Sequence record: PQ850615.1 | DNA length: 42,712 nucleotides | Source: Escherichia phage LotteLoewe_Bas71 | Direction: 5' to 3' (one strand) | Shown here: piece by piece, positions 5,112 to 37,440 of the stretch | How the letters are laid out: each line of letters opens with the position of its first letter | Position numbering within the stretch: position 1 is the first letter of the stretch | Notes under the pieces: model-generated | Told to the model about the DNA's origin: nothing | Databases searched by the model: none | The model's input: only the letters and a program-made list of their open reading frames with translations | Made by a program: the position numbers and the translations under genes

Positions 5112-5138
5112 TTTTCACCTCCTGTTTAAGTTAACTGA

Positions 5139-5167
5139 ATAGTACCCTATTATATTGGGGTGTGCAA
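5139..5167 (-). promoter_or_regulatory. leftward class A promoter for accessory gene 4908..5111
   Basis: On the minus strand TTGCAC (5162..5167) - N17 - TACTAT (5139..5144); same palindromic core. Confidence 0.55.
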
Positions 5168-13749: not shown

Positions 13750-13778
13750 GTTACATGTGAATAGTACCCTATTATATT
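13750..13778 (+). promoter_or_regulatory. candidate rightward promoter overlapping the leftward one (divergent pair)
   Basis: GTTACA (13750..13755) - N17 - TATATT (13773..13778) on the plus strand within the same palindromic element; upstream of tail chaperone operon. Confidence 0.35.
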
Positions 13779-14313: not shown

Positions 14314-14675
14314 AAGCGCTGTATGAATTTGCGCAATGGTGCTTTGTCGACCGCCACAAACGTAAGCAATTCGACGACATCGCGGCGGGCCACCAGGCGG
14401 CTTTGATTGCAATGGGCGTGATTAAAGAACCGCAGATGAAAGAAGCGACGGGGCCAGAATGCCCCGTTTCTCTTATCGACGTGTTCGAGAAATACCGTGC
14501 CATTAAATTCCTACAGCGCGAAACAGATGATACTATCGTTATAATCCCGCGCGATGCGCTCAAATGGCAAGATTTGGTAGCGTTTCGTGATGTCGCCGGT
14601 TACGGCATAAGTTTGTTCGAAGCCGAGGTTATCATGGGCTTAGACGGAATATTTGAGGGCAGAGAAGATGGCTGA
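14307..14675 (+). CDS. tail assembly chaperone -1 frameshift extension (GT-like product)
   Basis: -1 frame is open from 14295 to 14675 and overlaps the tape measure start; lysine codon AAG sits directly before stop TAA with A AAA AG context (14305..14313). Confidence 0.45.
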   Translation, partial: KVKALYEFAQWCFVDRHKRKQFDDIAAGHQAALIAMGVIKEPQMKEATGPECPVSLIDVFEKYRAIKFLQRETDDTIVIIPRDALKWQDLVAFRDVAGYGISLFEAEVIMGLDGIFEGREDG

Positions 14676-16980
14676 TACGGCTTCCCTAATCGCCAGAGTA
14701 AAAACAGAAGGTGCTGACGTAGCTGCCAAACAGCTTGACGCTATGGCGTCGTCTGCAGACCGCGCTGATACCGCGGTAAACAAGCTGACTCCGGACGTTA
14801 ATAAAGTAAACTCCGCTACGTCTAAAGCGGCTTCTGACGGTTTCGCTAAATTCCGTAACGCCGCCGGGCAGGTAGGCTTCCAGGTGCAGGACATGGTCGT
14901 CCAGTTGCAGTCCGGCACGTCTGCATTCGTAGCAATCGGGCAACAAGGCTCTCAGCTTGCGGGTGCTTTCGGCCCTGGTGGCGCGGTGCTTGGGGCCGTA
15001 ATTGCTCTTGCGTCAGCAATCGGTGGTGTCCTGTATAAATCGTTAACCGAAGCAGAAGGCAGTTCAAAAGACCTCGAAGCCGCGCAGAAACAGTTAAAAG
15101 ATACTTTCCAGCAAACGGCATCTGGCTCTCTCGAGCTGACAGACGGCCTTATCCAGCTTACCCAAATCAGCAGAGAGGCGGCAGAGACTCAGCTTGCTCT
15201 GGCTAAGGCCAACGCGGACCTTATCGCGCAGCAAACAGCTAAAGCCGTTCGTGAGGACGCAGAATCGTGGGAAACATGGAAAGCATCCACGGCATCGGCG
15301 ATTAGCCAGTACGATGCACTGACCTCTAAGGGTGCTGATGTAGGTGACACGTTAGAAAAACTCGGTGGTACTTACGAGGGTAACATCGTAGGCGTCAACA
15401 TGCTGGCGCAGAATATCGCGGAGCTTAGCAGTAAGTTCGGAGTTAACCGTGACCAGGCGCTGGAGATGATAGCGGCGCAGAGTGCGTTTAACAAAGAGCC
15501 AACCGCCGAGAATGCCCGTCGCATCGCCGATGTGTTTACCGACTGGCTCGGTAACACAAAACAGTTGAACCCGGAACTTATCCGCCTGACGGACAACGCC
15601 AACAAGAACGCCACGGCACTGGAGAACGCGGAGAAGTCAGCAAACGCGGCGGCAGAGGCCCAAAAGAATCTTGGTCGCAACGTCAACTCAACCACGCAGA
15701 GATTCCAGGAACAGAACGAAGCTATCGTCAAAGACCAGCAAATCGCCATCTTAAGCGACCGTGAGCGTATCCGGGCGCAAGCTGAACTTGATAAACAGGC
15801 GTTCGCTAAACGTGAAGCCGTCACCAAAGAACAGATAGCCGCGTATAATGCGGCCCGCGACGCGGAAGCGCAGCAAGACATCGCCCGCATTGACAAGACC
15901 GAGAAAGAGAAGGCCGACCGCGAGGCTAAATCGAACGAGGAACGTCTGGCGGCACAAGCCAAACGCGAAGAAACAGCGGCACAACGTCAGAAAAAAGCGG
16001 CGGAAGATTTCCTGGCTACTGTCGACCGCACAACCGGAGACGAAATTTCACGTATCACAGCGGCAGAAGAACAGAAACTGGCGAAACTTGAAGAGTTCAA
16101 CCGCGCCGGAACGATAAGCCAGCAGCAGTACGAAAACGCCAAAACTCAAATTATGCTCACCGCCGAGCAGGCCAGACAGGAAGAACTGGATAAGAAAAGA
16201 AAAGAGCAGCAGGAAAAGCAGCAGAAAGGCGACGACTTCATGGCCCAGATTATGGGTCAGAACGCCGCTGAGCTTGAGCTTCTCGACATCCAGGAACAGC
16301 AGAAACTGTCGGTAGCAGATAAGTACCGCGAGCAGGGTTTGATTAGTGAGAAGCAGTACCAGGCGGCGCTTAACGCCATCAATGAGCAGTATGCTACGAA
16401 GCGTGCCGACGCAACGGCAACGGCCTTCGGTAACATGGCTTCAAACATCGGTTCGGCTTTGGGCGAGGCTTCTGGCGCGTATAAGGCATTCGCTATCGTA
16501 CAGGCCACTATCGCCACGTACACCGCGGCTATCGAGGCGTACAAGTCCACAGCGGCTATCCCTGTAGTTGGTCCGTTCCTGGCTCCTGTAGCTGCCGCCG
16601 CTGCCGTTGGGGCGGGTATGGCGCAGATTTCCGCTATCAGGTCCGCACGTGAACAGGGCGGACAGTTATCAGCCGGGCAGGCTTCCACCATCGCTGAACG
16701 TGGTAAACCAGAAGTTATCATGCCCGCTGGTGCGTCACGTGTACGCACCGCACAGCAGATGAAAGAGATTATGGGACAAAACGGGTCTTCTTCCGGCCCA
16801 TCTAATGTTACCATTGTAAATAATACATCGAGTCAGATTGGCAACGTATCCACCGAGCAGGATGATGAAGGCCGTCTGCGTATCATCATAGAAGAGCAAG
16901 TTGCTGCATCTTTGCAGAACAGCAACAGTAAGATTAGCAAGGCCCGCAAGGCCACAAGAAATGCGCCGGGGTTTAAATAA
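14653..16980 (+). CDS. tail tape measure protein
   Basis: 775 aa, long A/Q/E/K-rich predicted coiled coil with a glycine/alanine-rich hydrophobic segment; position after chaperone. Confidence 0.75.
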   Translation: MRAEKMADTASLIARVKTEGADVAAKQLDAMASSADRADTAVNKLTPDVNKVNSATSKAASDGFAKFRNAAGQVGFQVQDMVVQLQSGTSAFVAIGQQGSQLAGAFGPGGAVLGAVIALASAIGGVLYKSLTEAEGSSKDLEAAQKQLKDTFQQTASGSLELTDGLIQLTQISREAAETQLALAKANADLIAQQTAKAVREDAESWETWKASTASAISQYDALTSKGADVGDTLEKLGGTYEGNIVGVNMLAQNIAELSSKFGVNRDQALEMIAAQSAFNKEPTAENARRIADVFTDWLGNTKQLNPELIRLTDNANKNATALENAEKSANAAAEAQKNLGRNVNSTTQRFQEQNEAIVKDQQIAILSDRERIRAQAELDKQAFAKREAVTKEQIAAYNAARDAEAQQDIARIDKTEKEKADREAKSNEERLAAQAKREETAAQRQKKAAEDFLATVDRTTGDEISRITAAEEQKLAKLEEFNRAGTISQQQYENAKTQIMLTAEQARQEELDKKRKEQQEKQQKGDDFMAQIMGQNAAELELLDIQEQQKLSVADKYREQGLISEKQYQAALNAINEQYATKRADATATAFGNMASNIGSALGEASGAYKAFAIVQATIATYTAAIEAYKSTAAIPVVGPFLAPVAAAAAVGAGMAQISAIRSAREQGGQLSAGQASTIAERGKPEVIMPAGASRVRTAQQMKEIMGQNGSSSGPSNVTIVNNTSSQIGNVSTEQDDEGRLRIIIEEQVAASLQNSNSKISKARKATRNAPGFK

Positions 16981-30255: not shown

Positions 30256-30284
30256 ACTATAATAGCTAACTATTCATGTGTCAA
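30256..30284 (-). promoter_or_regulatory. leftward class B promoter (TTGACA-N17-TATAGT) for SSB-like gene
   Basis: Minus strand TTGACA (30279..30284) - N17 - TATAGT (30256..30261); core AATAGCTAACTATTCA. Confidence 0.55.
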
Positions 30285-32555: not shown

Positions 32556-32584
32556 ACTATAATAGCGAACTATTCACATGTCAA
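32556..32584 (-). promoter_or_regulatory. leftward class B promoter (TTGACA-N17-TATAGT) for acidic early gene
   Basis: Minus strand TTGACA (32579..32584) - N17 - TATAGT (32556..32561); core AATAGCGAACTATTCA. Confidence 0.6.
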
Positions 32585-32599: not shown

Positions 32600-32628
32600 T
32601 AATTAATATGGTACTATTCACATATCAA
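32600..32628 (-). promoter_or_regulatory. second, weaker tandem leftward promoter / operator half-site
   Basis: Minus strand TTGATA (32623..32628) - N17 - TAATTA; contains half-site GTACTATTCACAT. Confidence 0.35.
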
Positions 32629-32648: not shown

Positions 32649-32864
32649 ATGCAACCATCTGAACTAGGCATCCGTGTAGAACAACGCCGCAAAGAACTCG
32701 GCATCTCCCAGCGCCGTTTGGCGGCCCTGACCGGCGTTTCCCAGGGCGCGATTAACCAACTGGCACTTGGAGTAACTCAGGACGTCCGCCCGGCAACGCT
32801 GTTCAAACTGGCGGAAGTTCTGGAAGTAGACGCCAAGTGGCTGGCGTTAGGTGAAGGGGCTTAA
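32649..32864 (+). CDS. XRE-family helix-turn-helix transcriptional regulator (Cro/CI-like)
   Basis: HTH signature (ISQRRLAALTGVSQGAINQLALG); AAGGAG SD; own terminator; oriented against the surrounding leftward genes. Confidence 0.7.
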   Translation: MQPSELGIRVEQRRKELGISQRRLAALTGVSQGAINQLALGVTQDVRPATLFKLAEVLEVDAKWLALGEGA

Positions 32865-32879
32865 AGCCCCTTTCTTTTT
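32856..32879 (+). terminator. intrinsic terminator after XRE HTH gene
   Basis: GGGGC-TTAAA-GCCCC hairpin followed by TTTCTTTTT; stop codon lies within the hairpin. Confidence 0.6.
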
Positions 32880-32881
32880 AC

Positions 32882-35104
32882 CTATTCCAAATCCTCCTCT
32901 GTCACCACCAGCATCTCATTTGGTTCGTATAGTGTCTTCGGCCTTAATCTATCCCCTATTCTTTCGGGTATACGATATGTTCTCGGTACTACTTCGCCGT
33001 TAGCATCGCAACCAAGCATTAGTTCTCCATCTTTCAACATTTTATCAAGATGGGTGTTAGTCACAGAGAAGTCACCGGAACGAGCCACTATCTGCTGCTG
33101 AGTAAAACCGCGACCTGTGTCATCTGACTGTTGCAGGTCTTCCAGTGCCGAAAGTATTGACTCCTTCCTTACTTCATCCCTGCCGCGTTTAACTTCTTCC
33201 TTTACTTTTTGCTTACCTTCTTTCGTCAACCCTTCTTCCCGCTCTTTCTCCTCGTCAGTTTTGAACGGCTCGAAACCCCACGGCATCAACACAAGCGCCT
33301 TGTGTGGTTCAGGAAGGTCCAGGTTTACGATTGTGCCGTATTCTTCTGTGCCCCCCAGGAACTCAACCGCACGGTACTCTTTCGGCGGAGGAGCTTCGCG
33401 GAACTGCACAGACTCCAGCACCATGCCAACCGTTTTCTGTTGAGGACCGTGCTTAAATTTCGAGTGGTATACGTTTATTTGACGGTCGGTTGCACGTTCG
33501 ATTGTCAGTTCCACGTCAACACCCGCATACAGCGCCCCACTGCCGCGTGCTTTCTTTCCACCCTTCGGCGTATGGTGGACAACGCCTACTGCGGCTTTAG
33601 TTGCATCGCGTACTTCTTTCAGAATGGCGATAACTTTACCCATGCCGATTGCTGTTGATGAACTGTTCTCGTCGAACTTATCAATCGTCAGTGCCAGGGT
33701 CTGGTTAAGGGTGTCGAACGCAACCATGCCAATTGGCTCGTCGCCAGCAGTTTCGCGCATTAACTTAATCAGGCTTTTAAGTTTGCCGACTTCGCCCATA
33801 TCGATGACGTGTACATAATCTTTACCTTCCCCGCCATATTTAGCCGCTAGTGCATCAATACGGGTGCGTGTAGCTGCGCCACCCTCACCATCAATATAGA
33901 AATGGTGGCAACGCTGGGTATCCGCCCCCGCAAACCTGTACCCGGCGGCGCTGAGGTACATCATCCCCAGCGTATAGAACGATTTGTACGTGCCAGATTC
34001 CCCGACGATATCCCAGATACAATCCGACGGCATGTACCCCTCAACGACGAAATCAGCCTTTACCGGCTCCGGTAACTCGTCCTCCTCTGAGTCCTCGTCG
34101 TCTTCCAGGTCGTCGAGGCTGCAAGTTACTGGGTCCTCGTTCTCTGTGCGGTGTAGTTCTTCAATCTCTTCTTCCGGTAAATCAGGCAGAGCCGCACGAA
34201 TGCTGTTAATGCTGATAGGTTGCTTATCTATGTTAAGCTCGTCGGGTAGGCCACACATACGCAGGGCCAAATGCTGCCTACGGTTAAGCTCGGTGCAAGC
34301 GCCGTTGTTTGTATGCTGGCAGACAAAGCGCACTTCTTTACCGTCGAGCATTATGCTGGTGGAGCCCTTGCCTGTATGCAGATGTTCGTTAGGGCATGGC
34401 ACTTCGTACCCGCGCCCGGAAGATAAAGCGTCAAGGCCAAGCTCGGCTTCGCAGAAGTGTGCTATATCCGCGTTAAGCCCATGCTCATCAGCGGCAAGTG
34501 TTTTAGCCTCACGCTTACGCAACCCCATCTCTTCGGCTTTCTTGATGTACCGCTCAGCACGGATAACACGCCCTTCTGTAACCGTTATCTTCGACTCTTT
34601 ATGCGGCAGGTAGATAAGGCGGTTGCCGTCTTCTGTGCAGTGGTCGCGCAACGCTTCGTCTATTTCTAACTCTGCACAAATAGCACGTTGCACCATCCAC
34701 GCGTCGTTAGAGTTAAACGGCGTGCGAGCTGGAACCAGAACGCGGAAAGCGTAATCTCCGTTTTTACACACATGCTGATGCGATGCCGTTGTATGCAGAA
34801 TATTGAAGAACGGTGCGTTCTTGAATTTGCGGGTAAGGTCGCGGTACTGAGTACGGTTGAGATGGTCGAAATCGAACTTAACCACACTGTCTTCCAGGAT
34901 AGCGTTTTTACGGCGACCACCAACAGGCGCAATAGCTTTCTGTTTAATCTTGGCAGCGTCGTACTCTTCCTTAGTCCATGACGGGTCCACGGATAAACGC
35001 TTCGATGTATCGCAGACATACTCCACAAACTGCTCGAGCGGCATCTCACGCGCTACAGGGTTTTTATCGAATGTGTTACGCAGCGTTGCAAAAACAATAT
35101 TCAT
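32882..35104 (-). CDS. DNA primase-helicase (primase N-terminal region + RecA/DnaB-like ATPase)
   Basis: 740 aa; Walker A-like GESGTYKS; C-terminal helicase motifs (VVHHTPKGG ... GSGALYAGVD); N-terminal Cys/His cluster (CPNEHLHTG ... FVCQH). Confidence 0.65.
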   Translation of the reverse strand: MNIVFATLRNTFDKNPVAREMPLEQFVEYVCDTSKRLSVDPSWTKEEYDAAKIKQKAIAPVGGRRKNAILEDSVVKFDFDHLNRTQYRDLTRKFKNAPFFNILHTTASHQHVCKNGDYAFRVLVPARTPFNSNDAWMVQRAICAELEIDEALRDHCTEDGNRLIYLPHKESKITVTEGRVIRAERYIKKAEEMGLRKREAKTLAADEHGLNADIAHFCEAELGLDALSSGRGYEVPCPNEHLHTGKGSTSIMLDGKEVRFVCQHTNNGACTELNRRQHLALRMCGLPDELNIDKQPISINSIRAALPDLPEEEIEELHRTENEDPVTCSLDDLEDDEDSEEDELPEPVKADFVVEGYMPSDCIWDIVGESGTYKSFYTLGMMYLSAAGYRFAGADTQRCHHFYIDGEGGAATRTRIDALAAKYGGEGKDYVHVIDMGEVGKLKSLIKLMRETAGDEPIGMVAFDTLNQTLALTIDKFDENSSSTAIGMGKVIAILKEVRDATKAAVGVVHHTPKGGKKARGSGALYAGVDVELTIERATDRQINVYHSKFKHGPQQKTVGMVLESVQFREAPPPKEYRAVEFLGGTEEYGTIVNLDLPEPHKALVLMPWGFEPFKTDEEKEREEGLTKEGKQKVKEEVKRGRDEVRKESILSALEDLQQSDDTGRGFTQQQIVARSGDFSVTNTHLDKMLKDGELMLGCDANGEVVPRTYRIPERIGDRLRPKTLYEPNEMLVVTEEDLE

Positions 35105-35229: not shown

Positions 35230-35269
35230 TGTATAATCCTTATGCTTACTTTGATGATTTGTACTTTAG

Positions 35270-35300
35270 CCCCGACGTTCTGGCGTTGGGGTTTCTTTTT
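35270..35300 (+). terminator. plus-strand intrinsic terminator inside the leftward arm (orphan)
   Basis: CCCCGACG-TTCTGG-CGTTGGGG stem followed by TTTCTTTTT; no plus-strand gene upstream. Confidence 0.4.
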
Positions 35301-35589
35301 ACCGTTTAGCCAACCCTTCCAGCAAATTTTTATACTCTTCAAAATATTCCTCGACCAAATCATCGCCGAAATAGAAGTCGATATACTCGAGATTATCTCT
35401 TACGTTAAGCGATGCCGACATGGTGCTTAGTTGGCGTAAGCTAATTAGCTTCATTTCTGTTTCTACGCAGAAAGGCCGGTAGGTATCAAGATGGCAAGAG
35501 ATATTGAAGCATAAAGCGAACTCTCCGGCCACGGAGTGAACCATATACACTTCGTTTTCTGCTTTATTGTGGAAAATTACGCCTTTCAT
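35299..35589 (-). CDS. hypothetical 96-aa protein
   Basis: ORF ATGA-coupled to the upstream AlpA-like gene. Confidence 0.4.
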   Translation of the reverse strand: MKGVIFHNKAENEVYMVHSVAGEFALCFNISCHLDTYRPFCVETEMKLISLRQLSTMSASLNVRDNLEYIDFYFGDDLVEEYFEEYKNLLEGLAKR

Positions 35590-35768
35590 TTCACGTTCTC
35601 CTTAATCCATGCTTCGACTTTATTACGGTCAAATGTTCCCGGTAAACGGCGGCCCATAACCTTAATACAGCAGTCAGGGAATTTGCCGCTGCGCAACCAG
35701 TTATTAATGGTCTGACGTGTCACCCCGATACGCTCGGCTACCTCATTCTGTGTCATGTAATGTTGCAT
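35586..35768 (-). CDS. AlpA/Xis-like HTH DNA-binding protein
   Basis: Start refined to ATG 35768 (AGGGGA SD); HTH region MTQNEVAERIGVTRQTINNWLRSGKFP typical of the AlpA family; first gene of the leftward arm. Confidence 0.6.
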   Translation of the reverse strand: MQHYMTQNEVAERIGVTRQTINNWLRSGKFPDCCIKVMGRRLPGTFDRNKVEAWIKENVK

Positions 35769-35799
35769 TTTTATATCCCCTGTTTGTTTAGTGAAACCG

Positions 35800-35828
35800 A
35801 GTATAGGATAGCGGGAATGTAAAAGCAA
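35800..35828 (-). promoter_or_regulatory. leftward promoter of replication arm (TTGCTT-N17-TATACT)
   Basis: Minus strand -35 TTGCTT (35823..35828), 17-nt spacer, -10 TATACT (35800..35805); about 30 nt upstream of AlpA-like ATG. Confidence 0.5.
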
Positions 35829-35865
35829 CCAATCCCTGCAATATTTAATCTTTACAAAAAAGTTA

Positions 35866-35895
35866 TTGAAAGTTCTTGACACATGTTTGTATAAT
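35866..35895 (+). promoter_or_regulatory. rightward promoter in central control region (TTGAAA-N18-TATAAT)
   Basis: -35 TTGAAA 35866..35871, 18-nt spacer, consensus -10 TATAAT 35890..35895; divergent from promoter 35800..35828. Confidence 0.5.
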
Positions 35896-36094
35896 GGTTT
35901 TGGGACTTGTATATATTACGGAGTTGACGAACCCTCCCCGAGGGATTCGTCAACCCCTCCCAGACAGCTGAGATGCTTGCCTTGTGGTTTAAGGATAAGT
36001 GTATCTAAATCTCATTTAAAGAAGTAACCCGCTGAAATATCTACTGTTTCTTAATGTGCCGTAGATTCGCAACCGTAAAAATGTAACGATTATT

Positions 36095-36122
36095 GGGCAG
36101 GCTTAGGGCCTGCCCTTTAGTT
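36095..36122 (+). terminator. terminator-like hairpin ending the control-region transcript
   Basis: GGGCAGGC-TTAGG-GCCTGCCC followed by TTTAGTT. Confidence 0.4.
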
Positions 36123-36187
36123 ACCAAGTAATAAGAATAAAGGCACAACAGTTTCGAAAGAATCACAACGGCAACGTAACTATTCTC

Positions 36188-36216
36188 TTGCACACCCCAA
36201 CATAATAGGATACTAT
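36188..36216 (+). promoter_or_regulatory. early promoter, class A (TTGCAC-N17-TACTAT) with palindromic core
   Basis: -35 TTGCAC 36188..36193, 17-nt spacer, -10 TACTAT 36211..36216; core CATAATAGGATACTATTCA. Confidence 0.55.
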
Positions 36217-36241
36217 TCACTTATCGAAACGAGACAGAGGA

Positions 36242-36442
36242 GTGAGGGTTATGTTTAAGAAGGGTCAGTTGGTTAAAACTAAACGCGGAGGGCAATATGT
36301 ATTAGTGTTGCAGGACGAGAGCGAGTATGACGAGGATAATCTGGTTGACGTATGGGGTCTGGTAAGAAAGAAAACTGGGTTCGCCTCCCGCGATAATTTA
36401 GAACTCATCGGCAACAATTTTAAATTCAAAGGGGCGAAGTGA
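36242..36442 (+). CDS. hypothetical early protein (66 aa)
   Basis: First ORF after promoter 36188..36216 with conserved AACGAGA...GGAG leader. Confidence 0.45.
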   Translation: MRVMFKKGQLVKTKRGGQYVLVLQDESEYDEDNLVDVWGLVRKKTGFASRDNLELIGNNFKFKGAK

Positions 36443-36657
36443 TGGAAGAATTAATTTGTATTGAATCCCGCCAGGATGTGCAGGATTGGTTTGTGAAAGG
36501 TAACAAATATTCGTCAGGAGTATATTACAACGGCCGTCGATACGTTTTAGATGAAGACGGTGATGAATGGGATTTAGAGGACACTGTGGGCGAGACTTTA
36601 ACCGTTAGTTTTCTTCAATGTTGTTTCCGCATCATTCACAACGGCATCGAATCATGA
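36439..36657 (+). CDS. hypothetical early protein (72 aa)
   Basis: ATGA-coupled ORF. Confidence 0.4.
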   Translation: MMEELICIESRQDVQDWFVKGNKYSSGVYYNGRRYVLDEDGDEWDLEDTVGETLTVSFLQCCFRIIHNGIES

Positions 36658-37380: not shown

Positions 37381-37409
37381 TTGCACACTAATATAGAATA
37401 GGCTACTAT
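37381..37409 (+). promoter_or_regulatory. early promoter, class A (TTGCAC-N17-TACTAT)
   Basis: Same architecture and core (TAGAATAGGCTACTATTCA) as 36188; follows terminator 37266..37296. Confidence 0.55.
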
Positions 37410-37440
37410 TCATTTACACAAACGAGAGGAGAGACGGAAG

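Follow-up and report, generated by a model that had tools for sequence, protein, structure and literature searches.

The gap between the leftward arm and the rightward early genes of Escherichia phage LotteLoewe_Bas71 is read here as the central early control region of this phage. As the most likely explanation, with a probability of about one half, we propose that its positions 36032-36150 (type alpha), which surround a palindrome at 36095-36115, form a replication origin, or a loading or priming site, that is recognized by the winged helix of the helicase-primase. This reading was favored because winged-helix type and 3' module type co-vary while skipping the segments between them, because the variable domain appears to match that of the primase-helicase-winged-helix initiators P4 alpha and pRN1 ORF904, because conservation of the alpha core far exceeds that of the flanking genes, because the minima of both G+C content and GC skew lie at the gap beside the replication genes, and because all module variants share a strong promoter aimed at a GC palindrome. 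The original prediction had remarked tentatively that the region could hold the replication origin, and the co-variation of its 3' half with the winged-helix domain lends that remark independent support.

All positions refer to the window, i.e., the whole stretch of 42,712 nucleotides that was analyzed (PQ850615.1). Its source is a virulent Kagunavirus (Guernseyvirinae) with ~99.8% identity to KMB35 and Bas72. Every feature listed in the original prediction was recovered in place, and the features on which the argument depends are as follows.

32885..33268, minus strand: C-terminal 128 amino acids of the helicase-primase, predicted winged-helix domain of type A, putative reader of the alpha module.
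35586..35768, minus strand: HTH gene heading the leftward arm; 60 amino acids, HTH_17 (AlpA/excisionase-like), Pfam E = 1.6e-8.
35768 to 36251: gap bounds, from the ATG of the HTH gene (35768, minus strand, as annotated in relatives) to the ATG of the next gene (36251).
35828..35800, minus strand: predicted leftward promoter P_L, TTGCTT-17-TATACT, 8/12 matches, under the scan threshold.
35833..36031, plus strand: 5' module of type W, an exchangeable cassette that holds P1 and the first hairpins.
35866..35895, plus strand: predicted rightward early promoter P1, TTGAAA-18-TATAAT, 11/12 matches, with a predicted transcription start near 35902.
35923..35954, plus strand: 5' hairpin GTTGACGAACCCTC / GAGGGATTCGTCAAC, 14 pairs, CCC loop, one bulged A.
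36032..36150, no strand assigned: 3' module of type alpha, proposed origin core, with an ultra-conserved core at 36057-36146.
36095..36122, plus strand: terminator-like 3' GC palindrome GGGCAGGC-TTAGG-GCCTGCCC (stem-loop 36095..36115) and tail TTTAGTT.
36155..36187, plus strand: element ahead of P2, GAATCACAACGGCAACGTAAC..., common to all Kagunavirus module types examined.
36188..36216, plus strand: promoter P2, TTGCAC-17-TACTAT.

The claim that the gap has no open reading frame (ORF) of 60 amino acids or more holds, since the remaining gap ORFs have at most 59 codons' worth of residues and the single exception, a 98-amino-acid ORF on the minus strand that reaches 35882, is merely the HTH gene lengthened to an upstream GTG. 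Annotations of Bas72 and hz69 place a small protein-coding gene here, which was rejected because no ORF is intact across relatives; stops and 1-nt indels cause the annotated minus-strand ORF to range from 21 to 116 amino acids among close relatives. The small ORFs of the gap had no match in a PHROG search, and no ATG ORF with a Shine-Dalgarno sequence ahead of it was found in any module type. A search of Escherichia coli genomes found no gap homologue, indicating that the gap is not a prophage element. A packaging (pac) site was also rejected, as module type is tracked by neither small nor large terminase type and the terminase genes are far off. In relatives, gap length is held at about 430-465 nt and the content is mosaic. 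Salmonella phages have a conserved gene-free stretch as long as ~1 kb.

The gap is the G+C minimum of the window (0.37-0.42). The cumulative GC-skew minimum of the window falls in the gap as well, with the replication genes adjoining, and the sign change of the skew can be ascribed to the switch in transcription direction at this place, which counts against using skew as a sign of an origin.

The divergent promoters and the next promoter at 36188 are present as claimed, with the motif matches given above. P_L is predicted to drive the HTH gene and the replication arm, and its -10 hexamer (AGTATA) is retained in three of the four 5' module types. RNA-seq of the related phage K1B4, for which results are given per gene only, put the HTH gene in the early class (PMC12645636). 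P1 was the top-scoring site in the 2 kb scanned, and both its hexamers and its 18-bp spacing agree with a sigma-70 promoter (near TTGACA/TATAAT, 16-18 bp apart). A strong sigma-70-like promoter is found at the same place in each of four unrelated 5' module types; those of the non-W modules are TTGACT-17-TAAGCT, TTGACA-17-TAAGGT or TAAGTT, and TTGACA-16-TAAAAT, all read by eye from sequences and alignments, the promoter scan having returned only the last.

The spacer and -10 of P2 are overlapped by a palindrome, AATAG-N4-CTATT (36204-36217), and the 18-nt P2 motif occurs seven times in the window against 0.02 copies expected by chance; four of the seven copies share the -35 and spacer and lie immediately upstream of genes. 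P2 belongs to the final ~87 nt of the gap, which are invariant across relatives. The element just ahead of it (36155..36187) is near-identical across alpha, beta, and gamma phages, and 10 nt of it are missing in most Salmonella Jerseyvirus sequences. The P2 motif is the repeated "phage promoter" motif that PHIRE returned for phage fBC-Eco01 (PMC9825357). An XRE-type repressor is encoded separately, and operator-like palindromes overlap P2-class promoters.

Both hairpins that had been pointed out, the 14-bp one and the terminator-like one, proved to be real. The hairpin at 35923..35954 folds at -23.2 kcal/mol (z = -5.5), which was equaled by 0 of 200 shuffles. The stem at 36095..36115 has nine pairs, seven of them G-C, and folds at -18.3 kcal/mol; inclusion of an outer helix, GTAAC/GTTAC, lowers this to -21.9 kcal/mol (z = -4.7). 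As a chance control we used 200 dinucleotide shuffles of the whole gap, scored in 40-nt windows. No window of the shuffled gaps reached -24.0 kcal/mol, and the shuffle minimum was -20.0, so both hairpins are beyond chance. The whole 224-nt stretch folds at z = -4.4.

The original prediction also hinged on the recurrence of the two hairpins in relatives, where strong stem-loops of the gap are maintained by compensatory changes. The arms at 36095-36115 are kept: among 29 distinct sequences the 7-bp arms are nearly invariant (one position changed in each of loci L006 and L123), the center is variable, and the eighth pair switches from C-G to T-A. The 5' hairpin is invariant among W-type relatives and hence has no covariation signal, and other 5' modules have different GC hairpins at the analogous position. 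The K/Jersey 5' modules of relatives contain a hairpin of ~100 nt whose base helices are conserved and whose tip is hypervariable; in it, 96.9% of the cells are paired and six pairs are altered on both sides. Its covariation score was reached in 0 of 500 shuffles, and the suggested covariation analysis thus returned compensatory changes that keep this hairpin.

These results bear on the possibility that P1 produces a discrete structured RNA of ~215-220 nt (35902 to ~36120) that targets mRNAs or proteins of the host or the phage in trans, without any origin role for the DNA. A near-consensus promoter followed by a hairpin with a T tail, good folding of the entire stretch, compensatory changes in the ~100-nt hairpin of relatives, and the lack of a conserved ORF in the gap would all fit such an RNA. 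On the other hand, Rfam 15 gave no match at the gathering threshold in the whole window; the best sub-threshold scores were 19-20 bits against thresholds of 45-70 (E up to 10), for which the terminator hairpin alone was responsible. A tRNA/tmRNA search also returned none. The U tail after the 3' stem, UUUAGUUA, has three U and then a break (UUUAGUU) and is short, unlike that of Hfq-type sRNAs; in the beta module the U run comes only past the outer helix, and the tail of the gamma module is U-rich with interruptions. An antisense or trans target within the phage genome was sought and rejected, complementarity to the remaining genome being limited to chance-level 9-14-mers. Folding has no strand preference either: consensus folding energy was -35.6 on the plus strand versus -38.0 on the minus strand and single-sequence energies were equal, so that structured RNA is indistinguishable from DNA-level structure. 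Moreover, action in trans leaves unexplained why the 3' module tracks the DNA-binding domain of the helicase-primase. We consider a free-standing regulatory RNA unlikely.

The 5' module occurs in at least four types, and in each of them a strong rightward promoter specific to that type precedes GC-rich hairpins. Type W was found in only about 20 phage records (at least 95% identity), and other phages have unrelated 5' cassettes of comparable length. The 3' module occurs in three types, namely alpha (that of the window), beta, and gamma, each with a different GC palindrome and a weak T tail. All of these sequence-unrelated variants have the same layout: a strong rightward promoter, one or more GC-rich hairpins, ~220-290 nt free of genes, and finally a GC hairpin with a weak T tail ~70 nt ahead of P2. 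Recurrence of this layout in every module variant supports, at the level of sequence, a functional 3' hairpin and a real early promoter. Either a discrete P1 transcript or an attenuated leader would fit it.

In the latter case the rightward operon would have P1 as its true early promoter and 36095-36122 as an attenuator, with read-through by nut/put/Q-type anti-termination or by a protein acting on the 5' hairpin. The promoter-proximal hairpin at +21, the terminator-like hairpin upstream of genes, and the identical layout in all variants are what such a leader should have. Yet the rightward genes have their own conserved P2, of a family used elsewhere in the genome, ~70 nt past the hairpin, and read-through is therefore unneeded; dependence on read-through, by which anti-termination would be recognized, was not found. 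Nor was a candidate anti-terminator identified, and an attenuator would not be expected to have unpaired hairpin flanks that are conserved so extremely, base by base. A long regulated leader is thus quite unlikely.

The alpha module is 81-94% conserved in several hundred phage records, including Salmonella Jerseyviruses. Between E. coli and Salmonella phages, identity is 91-100% in its core, compared with only 60-77% for the flanking genes. Nearly invariant palindrome arms, a free center, and the conservation of alpha suit a sequence-specific protein site. Iterons were sought in the alpha module and none was found.

Across 32 IMG/VR loci, 3' module type goes with the type of the last ~100 amino acids of the helicase-primase. 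A-type proteins occur with alpha in 10/10 loci and B-type with beta in 14/14, and C-type loci have gamma in six cases and alpha in two. In GenBank, the 20 gamma-module records are exactly the 20 C-type records and all 32 beta records fall among the 34 B-type records, whereas the A-type domain is present in 392 records, including the alpha-carrying Salmonella Jerseyviruses; because the sequences share descent, all these counts overstate the number of independent events. Adjusted mutual information with the 3' module was 0.84 for the C-terminal segment of the helicase, 0.61 for the central ATPase, and 0.26 for the N-terminal third.

The two partners are ~3 kb apart. The segments between them (HTH gene, ORF96, N-terminal third of the helicase, and 5' module) have other type distributions, and genes on the left side of the helicase show 68-100% identity in every class. 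When every gene of the window was compared in chunks of ~120 amino acids with eight complete genomes, only the C-terminal chunk of the helicase separated alpha (82-98%) from non-alpha phages (40-43%). Other candidate partners were rejected, as none of the HTH gene, ORF96, the helicase N-terminal third, the polymerase, and the right-arm genes tracks the module and the XRE repressor adjoining the helicase is 93-99% identical in all. The types of 3' module and DNA-binding domain are accordingly found in cognate pairs, alpha with A-type in hundreds of records, with the exception of four loci in which alpha is combined with a winged helix of type B or C (L025 and L028 from IMG/VR, and isolates OR594180 and PQ429079), so that matching is not absolute. 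Hidden beta or gamma motifs were not found in these exceptional phages, in which 9-mer sharing was at chance level and no (CTCA)n repeat was detected.

Ordinary promoters and a terminator might be all there is, in which case recombination would have left the modules as debris and shared ancestry would account for the link to the helicase C-terminus. The phages are highly mosaic, the counts are not phylogenetically independent, and there are four exceptions. Against this, the alpha core is conserved far beyond its flanks, the association jumps intervening segments of other history and is unique in the genome-wide scan, and beta stays with B-type across five different intervening backgrounds. 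This is the least probable of the explanations considered.

The helicase-primase has an AAA_25 (RepA/DnaB-like) core, and its variable C-terminal domain is predicted by modeling to be a winged helix; the arrangement of a helicase core and a predicted C-terminal winged helix in one replication protein is that of P4 alpha and pRN1 ORF904. Foldseek matches of the model are individually not significant (E >= 0.09), and the domain of P4 alpha itself is absent among the matches listed and gave no sequence match. Fold matches include SelB, a binder of RNA hairpins, and Z-alpha, which binds unusual nucleic-acid forms. A comparison of the helicase-primase sequence with solved structures returned no match, and neither did Pfam for the N-terminal 340 amino acids (the "primase" third), the primase label being based solely on the PHROG name "replicative helicase-primase".

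Co-variation demonstrates a functional link and is silent on what the link does. Since the 3' module sits between two promoters, the winged helix might bind it as an operator and control P1 or P2, as a timing switch or autoregulator, without any start of replication. We regard this as very unlikely: P2-class promoters elsewhere lack the module, in P4 alpha and pRN1 ORF904, the known cases in which a replicative helicase or primase carries a fused winged helix, that domain reads the origin, and the separate XRE-type repressor, with palindromes over P2-class promoters, already exists.

Under the origin reading, host RNA polymerase would fire from the back-to-back P_L and P1 upon infection. Transcription from P_L would yield the HTH protein and then the replication proteins, and P1, if active, would direct transcription rightward across ~220 nt of hairpin-rich, gene-free DNA into the palindrome, with a putative stop at 36116-36122. 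If the co-variation reflects binding, and if binding means origin function, the helicase-primase would bind its cognate module via the winged helix, assemble, and open the adjoining A+T-rich DNA, with the palindrome (36095..36122) as a binding or structural element of the origin. Transcription from P1 may have a role in replication by aiding these steps, either because it activates the origin or because it provides the hairpin site with an RNA 3' end. The rightward genes would be expressed mainly from the separate P2, conserved across relatives. In a further version, which we hold to be distinctly improbable, the replication machinery would include the P1 transcript. The winged helix would then read the 3' hairpin of this RNA, or the R-loop that it forms, at an RNA-primed origin with exchangeable specificity cassettes, and the hypervariable hairpin tip of the 5' module would add another determinant of specificity or of an arms race, such as a host-defense decoy or a cause of incompatibility among relatives that infect the same cell.

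Hundreds of therapeutic and biocontrol phages with sequenced genomes belong to the Guernseyvirinae (Kagunavirus and Jerseyvirus). Searches of the literature found neither a replication experiment on any member of the subfamily nor a description of its replication origin or early regulatory circuit, and for the gap region they returned no report of an origin, a non-coding RNA, or mapped transcripts. If the origin reading is true, it would explain the conserved gene-free stretch, and the three exchangeable origin/winged-helix specificity pairs would be both an engineering handle (minimal replicons, helper/satellite designs) and a natural experiment on how recombination reshuffles origin/initiator specificity. 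It would also correct annotations that place small hypothetical genes in the gap or credit the P2 motif to a phage RNA polymerase; Kagunavirus phages are not known to encode such a polymerase.

Transcribed or promoter-primed origins are familiar from lambda ori (activation from pR), the primary origin of T7, the R-loops of T4 oriF/oriG, and ColE1 RNA II. The present region is similar in that a strong promoter points into the proposed origin, at or near which the predicted transcript, structured and untranslated, would end, and differs in that the predicted transcript is C-rich rather than G-rich at the 5' hairpin. In lambda, the 6S RNA (pR' to tR') is a substrate of Q anti-termination, the late genes have no second promoter, and the oop gene lies beside the origin. 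As with 6S and oop, a short non-coding transcript (here predicted), a strong promoter, and a terminator ahead of a gene block are present. Unlike in the 6S case, P2 follows directly, and there is no sequence or Rfam similarity. In fBC-Eco01 (OM272052), a host promoter, a terminator, and a "phage promoter" have been annotated at homologous positions; they are predictions by software without functional interpretation, and the repeated motif was ascribed to a phage RNA polymerase (PMC9825357).

P4 alpha combines priming and helicase activities in a single polypeptide, and its C-terminal winged helix, like that of pRN1 ORF904, is held to read the origin (PMC2777425, PMC4234260). The phage protein similarly has a helicase core and a C-terminal winged helix in one polypeptide, the domain here being predicted and its type matching a non-coding module. 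P4 alpha is composed of an SF3 helicase and a Toprim primase, whereas the phage protein has an AAA_25 core and an N-terminal third without Pfam match. P4 alpha binds repeats at its origin (PMC4234260), in contrast to the alpha module, in which no repeats were found and which has a single GC palindrome at its center.

ORF904 of pRN1 consists of prim/pol, SF3 helicase, and winged-helix domains, and thus its helicase superfamily is different from that of the phage protein. Specific binding has never been shown for pRN1. Its origin is a stem-loop of ~100 nt that is poorly conserved in sequence and always foldable, with highly conserved flanks, and the pRN1 authors noted similar stem-loops beside such replication proteins in bacteriophages (PMC4234260). 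The pRN1 stem-loop is located just downstream of the rep gene, whereas the phage element is upstream, past three small genes, with a dedicated promoter pointing toward it. As in pRN1, the K/Jersey 5' modules form a hairpin of ~100 nt in which conserved base helices carry a hypervariable tip.

Escherichia phages vB-Eco-KMB35 and Bas72 share 99.5-99.8% identity with the window over 35590-36450. This stretch matched 203 phage records, each of a Kagunavirus- or Jerseyvirus-like phage (Guernseyvirinae), and none of 5,426 complete E. coli genomes, indicating that the window represents a virulent siphovirus of ~43 kb. The gene-free gap at 35769-36241 is the junction of two arms. The leftward arm runs from a helix-turn-helix (HTH) protein through two small ORFs and a 740-aa helicase-primase onward to DNA polymerase, and the rightward arm comprises many small genes. 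The original prediction had described this gap as a divergent control region with back-to-back promoters, which our analysis supports: all of its promoters and hairpins were recovered in place, and software annotation of the relative fBC-Eco01 had predicted the same arrangement. The features are as follows.

35828..35800, - strand: leftward promoter P_L, TTGCTT-17-TATACT, weak (8/12); -10 kept in three of four 5' module types
35833-36031: 5' module, type W
35866..35895, + strand: rightward early promoter P1, TTGAAA-18-TATAAT (11/12)
35923..35954: hairpin of 14 pairs plus one bulge, -23.2 kcal/mol, z = -5.5
36032-36150: 3' module, type alpha, palindrome GGGCAGGC/GCCTGCCC
36095..36115: hairpin of 9 pairs, then TTTAGTT
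36188..36216, + strand: promoter P2 of the rightward genes, TTGCAC-17-TACTAT

With its outer GTAAC/GTTAC helix, the second hairpin reaches -21.9 kcal/mol (z = -4.7). Shuffling the gap 200 times with dinucleotides preserved never gave a 40-nt window that equalled the best window of either hairpin in stability. The gap also lacks a long ORF, as had been proposed; the "98-aa ORF" that reaches into it arises when the 60-aa HTH gene is read from a GTG further upstream. The first rightward gene most likely starts at ATG 36251 (GGAG 9 nt upstream) rather than at GTG 36242.

Searching the whole window against Rfam at gathering thresholds gave no match; matches in the gap reached only 19-20 bits and were driven by the terminator-like hairpin, and a tRNA search found none. 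Minus-strand ORFs are annotated in the gap of Bas72 (two) and hz69 (one), for which a PHROG search returned no match. In close relatives, stop codons and 1-nt indels leave the longer one anywhere between 21 and 116 aa, and no module type has an ATG ORF with a ribosome-binding site in front of it. Judged by its sequence, the gap is neither a known RNA nor coding, and the candidate structured RNA of ~220 nt is plausible.

We compared 35 IMG/VR loci, fetched via the HTH protein, together with 16 from GenBank. In most of them P2 lies ~430-465 nt from the HTH start, and the sequence in between is a mosaic of exchangeable blocks in a fixed architecture. The 5' module has at least four unrelated types (W, C, K and S; K in K1ind1 and all Salmonella Jerseyviruses), each having GC-rich hairpins downstream of a strong rightward promoter of its own. 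The 3' module has three: alpha, beta (palindrome GGGGTGGGC/GCCCACCC within an outer helix ending in TTTT) and gamma (a (CTCA)n repeat, GGTGCC-TTCG-GGCACC, then a T-rich tail). The gamma microsatellite, just upstream of the palindrome, has 3 to 6+ units (loci L004, L051 (Golestan), L094 and L110). The last ~87 nt (36155-36241) are near-identical in all IMG/VR (Kagunavirus-type) loci; in many Salmonella Jerseyviruses part of them is absent or replaced by further non-coding sequence. As much as ~1 kb here is free of annotated genes in Salmonella Jerseyviruses such as Ent2, 5sent1 and Ent3 (L115, L116 and L118; about positions 620-1620 of these loci), with a second unit downstream of alpha, a GC hairpin GCACTTGCC..GGCAAGCGC followed by GAATAAAGGCAC. 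Despite sequence replacement, the layout is kept: a promoter is followed by ~220-290 nt that are not translated, then by a GC palindrome whose T tail is weak and finally by P2. The two predicted hairpins have counterparts in relatives, GC-rich hairpins or a GC palindrome at each place, but their sequences differ by module type.

The helicase-primase gene (32882-35104, - strand) is itself a three-part mosaic whose parts, with two to three types each (~14-46% identity between types), have recombined variously among relatives. The N-terminal ~350 aa and the central AAA_25 ATPase have two types each, and the last ~100 aa, containing a predicted winged helix, have three (A, B and C; ~27-45% identity). 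Among 32 IMG/VR loci, all 10 A-type loci carried alpha and all 14 B-type loci beta, with C-type paired with gamma in six and alpha in two; these and the following type counts are not phylogenetically independent. None of 392 A-type GenBank records had beta or gamma, the 34 B-type records comprised 32 with beta (32/32 beta records) and two with alpha, and the 20 C-type records were exactly the 20 gamma records. A-type records include alpha-carrying Salmonella phages, whose domain is 67-70% identical to that of the window. Across the 32 IMG/VR loci, adjusted mutual information with the 3' module was 0.84 for the C-terminal segment, 0.61 for the centre and 0.26 for the N-terminal third.

The 3' module and the helicase C-terminus lie ~3 kb apart, and the types of everything in between (helicase centre and N-terminus, ORF96, HTH, 5' module) are distributed differently; alpha, beta and gamma phages share, for example, a 100% identical HTH protein. 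The pairing of beta with B persists on five different intervening backgrounds, and in all classes the genes to the left of the helicase show 68-100% identity. Of all window genes, compared in ~120-aa chunks with eight complete genomes, only the C-terminal chunk of the helicase set alpha phages apart, at 82-98% identity against 40-43% in the rest; the XRE repressor beside the helicase (93-99% in all) and both terminase subunits did not. An association that skips intervening segments is expected under functional coupling but not under plain linkage or clade structure. Alpha occurs with a B- or C-type domain in four loci. Two of them (L025 and L028) are from a single metagenome and could be chimeric assemblies, and the other two, OR594180 and PQ429079, were isolated phages. 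A search of these genomes for hidden short beta or gamma motifs found none. Beta and gamma were never found without their partner type, and alpha is tolerated with others. OR594180.1 (L127; B-type winged helix with alpha) carries the taxonomy Autographiviridae; Kayfunavirus and the name vB_EcoM, and is probably mislabelled, given a replication region collinear with that of Kagunavirus siphoviruses.

Outside the region studied, the large terminase (587-1810, +) is 37-69% identical to seven of eight complete relatives and 97-100% to BEU35, and the first half of the tape-measure gene (14668-16980, +) matches only phage L AB-2017, which adds to the examples of strong mosaicism.

The alpha module is present in several hundred records, Salmonella phages included. 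Over its core (36057-36146), the window shares 91-100% identity with K1ind1 or Jersey phages; the flanking HTH gene, ORF96, nearby helicase part and first rightward gene reach only ~60-77% over most comparisons. The 29 distinct alpha sequences hardly differ in the 7-bp arms GGGCAGG/CCTGCCC or in either unpaired flank; the eighth pair changes from C-G to T-A, and the centre varies (CTTAGGG, CTTAAGG, CCTTAAG, TTTTAGA). This pattern fits both a hairpin and a sequence-specific protein site.

Covariation among relatives, an originally proposed check, was informative for the K/Jersey 5' module but not for the W module, which shows no variation among ~20 relatives, 14-bp hairpin included. The first ~110 nt of the K/Jersey module form a long hairpin whose base helices (AGUUAC/GUAACU, UUC/GAA, UUCA/UGAA, GUAAG/CUUAC) are paired in 96.9% of cells (26-49% in slid controls), with six pairs changed on both sides and a covariation score of 0.209 vs 0.115 in shuffles (reached by 0/500). 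The tip, between conserved CTTGTRA and TTACTGAA, is hypervariable: at least four GC-rich versions occur there, unrelated to one another. Because the consensus folds alike on either strand (-38.0 on the - vs -35.6 on the + strand), this hairpin may act in RNA, single-stranded DNA or a cruciform.

P2 carries an 18-nt motif, ATAATAGGATACTATTCA, with seven copies in the window vs 0.02 expected. Near-identical promoter-like sites (TTGCACACCCCAAYATAATAGGRTACTATTCA) lie upstream of genes on both arms.

5136-5153, - strand: with shared -35 and spacer, 20-30 nt upstream of a ribosome-binding site
13758-13775, - strand: likewise
30259-30276, + strand: within the leftward arm, without the TTGCAC -35
36202-36219, + strand: as the first two (P2)
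37395-37412, + strand: likewise

One alternative is a leader under anti-termination, in which read-through from P1 would supply the rightward genes; P2 lowers its standing, since genes with their own promoter need no read-through. The motif is the repeated "phage promoter" of the fBC-Eco01 paper, where it was ascribed to a phage RNA polymerase, a user that seems unlikely in these phages. It overlaps the -10 of P2-class promoters and, because its core AATAG-N4-CTATT is palindromic, may be the operator of an XRE repressor, which would link autoregulation with control of these promoters. The 71-aa XRE/Cro-CI-type gene (32649-32864, +; Pfam HTH_3, E = 3.9e-13) sits within the leftward replication arm on the other strand, converging on the helicase-primase gene, and is preceded by two motif copies (32559-32576 and 32603-32620). 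Two hairpins resemble bidirectional terminators: AAGGGGCTTAAAGCCCCTTTCTTTTT between these convergent genes (32855-32880), and AGCCCCGACG..CGTTGGGGTT then TCTTTTT between ORF96 and a 42-aa ORF (35268-35293), the latter annotated on both strands in fBC-Eco01 too.

The possibility that the gap holds the replication origin, raised originally, is now the best-supported reading. We rank first, at a probability of about 0.5, an origin that the helicase-primase would recognise through its winged helix, with transcription from P1, because it follows an established initiator pattern and the gap has matching ingredients, together with the co-variation of 3' module and C-terminal domain. These ingredients are a GC palindrome that is type-specific and has ultra-conserved flanks, A+T-rich DNA (at 0.37-0.42 G+C, the lowest in the window), hairpins kept by compensatory change and adjoining replication genes; iterons were not found. 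The cumulative GC-skew minimum of the window also falls here, where an origin is not separable from the switch in transcription direction. By analogy with lambda, T7, T4 and ColE1, transcription from P1 might activate the origin or provide an RNA 3' end at the palindrome.

Initiator-specific origins are a known kind, with none found described for this phage group in the literature searched. Replicative helicases or helicase-primases whose C-terminal winged helix reads the origin are an established pattern: this domain of P4 alpha binds origin repeats, and pRN1 ORF904 has the same three-part layout (PMC2777425, PMC4234260). The pRN1 origin is a ~100-nt stem-loop of variable sequence, conserved fold and conserved flanks, and its authors noted similar stem-loops beside such proteins in bacteriophages (PMC2777425, PMC4234260).
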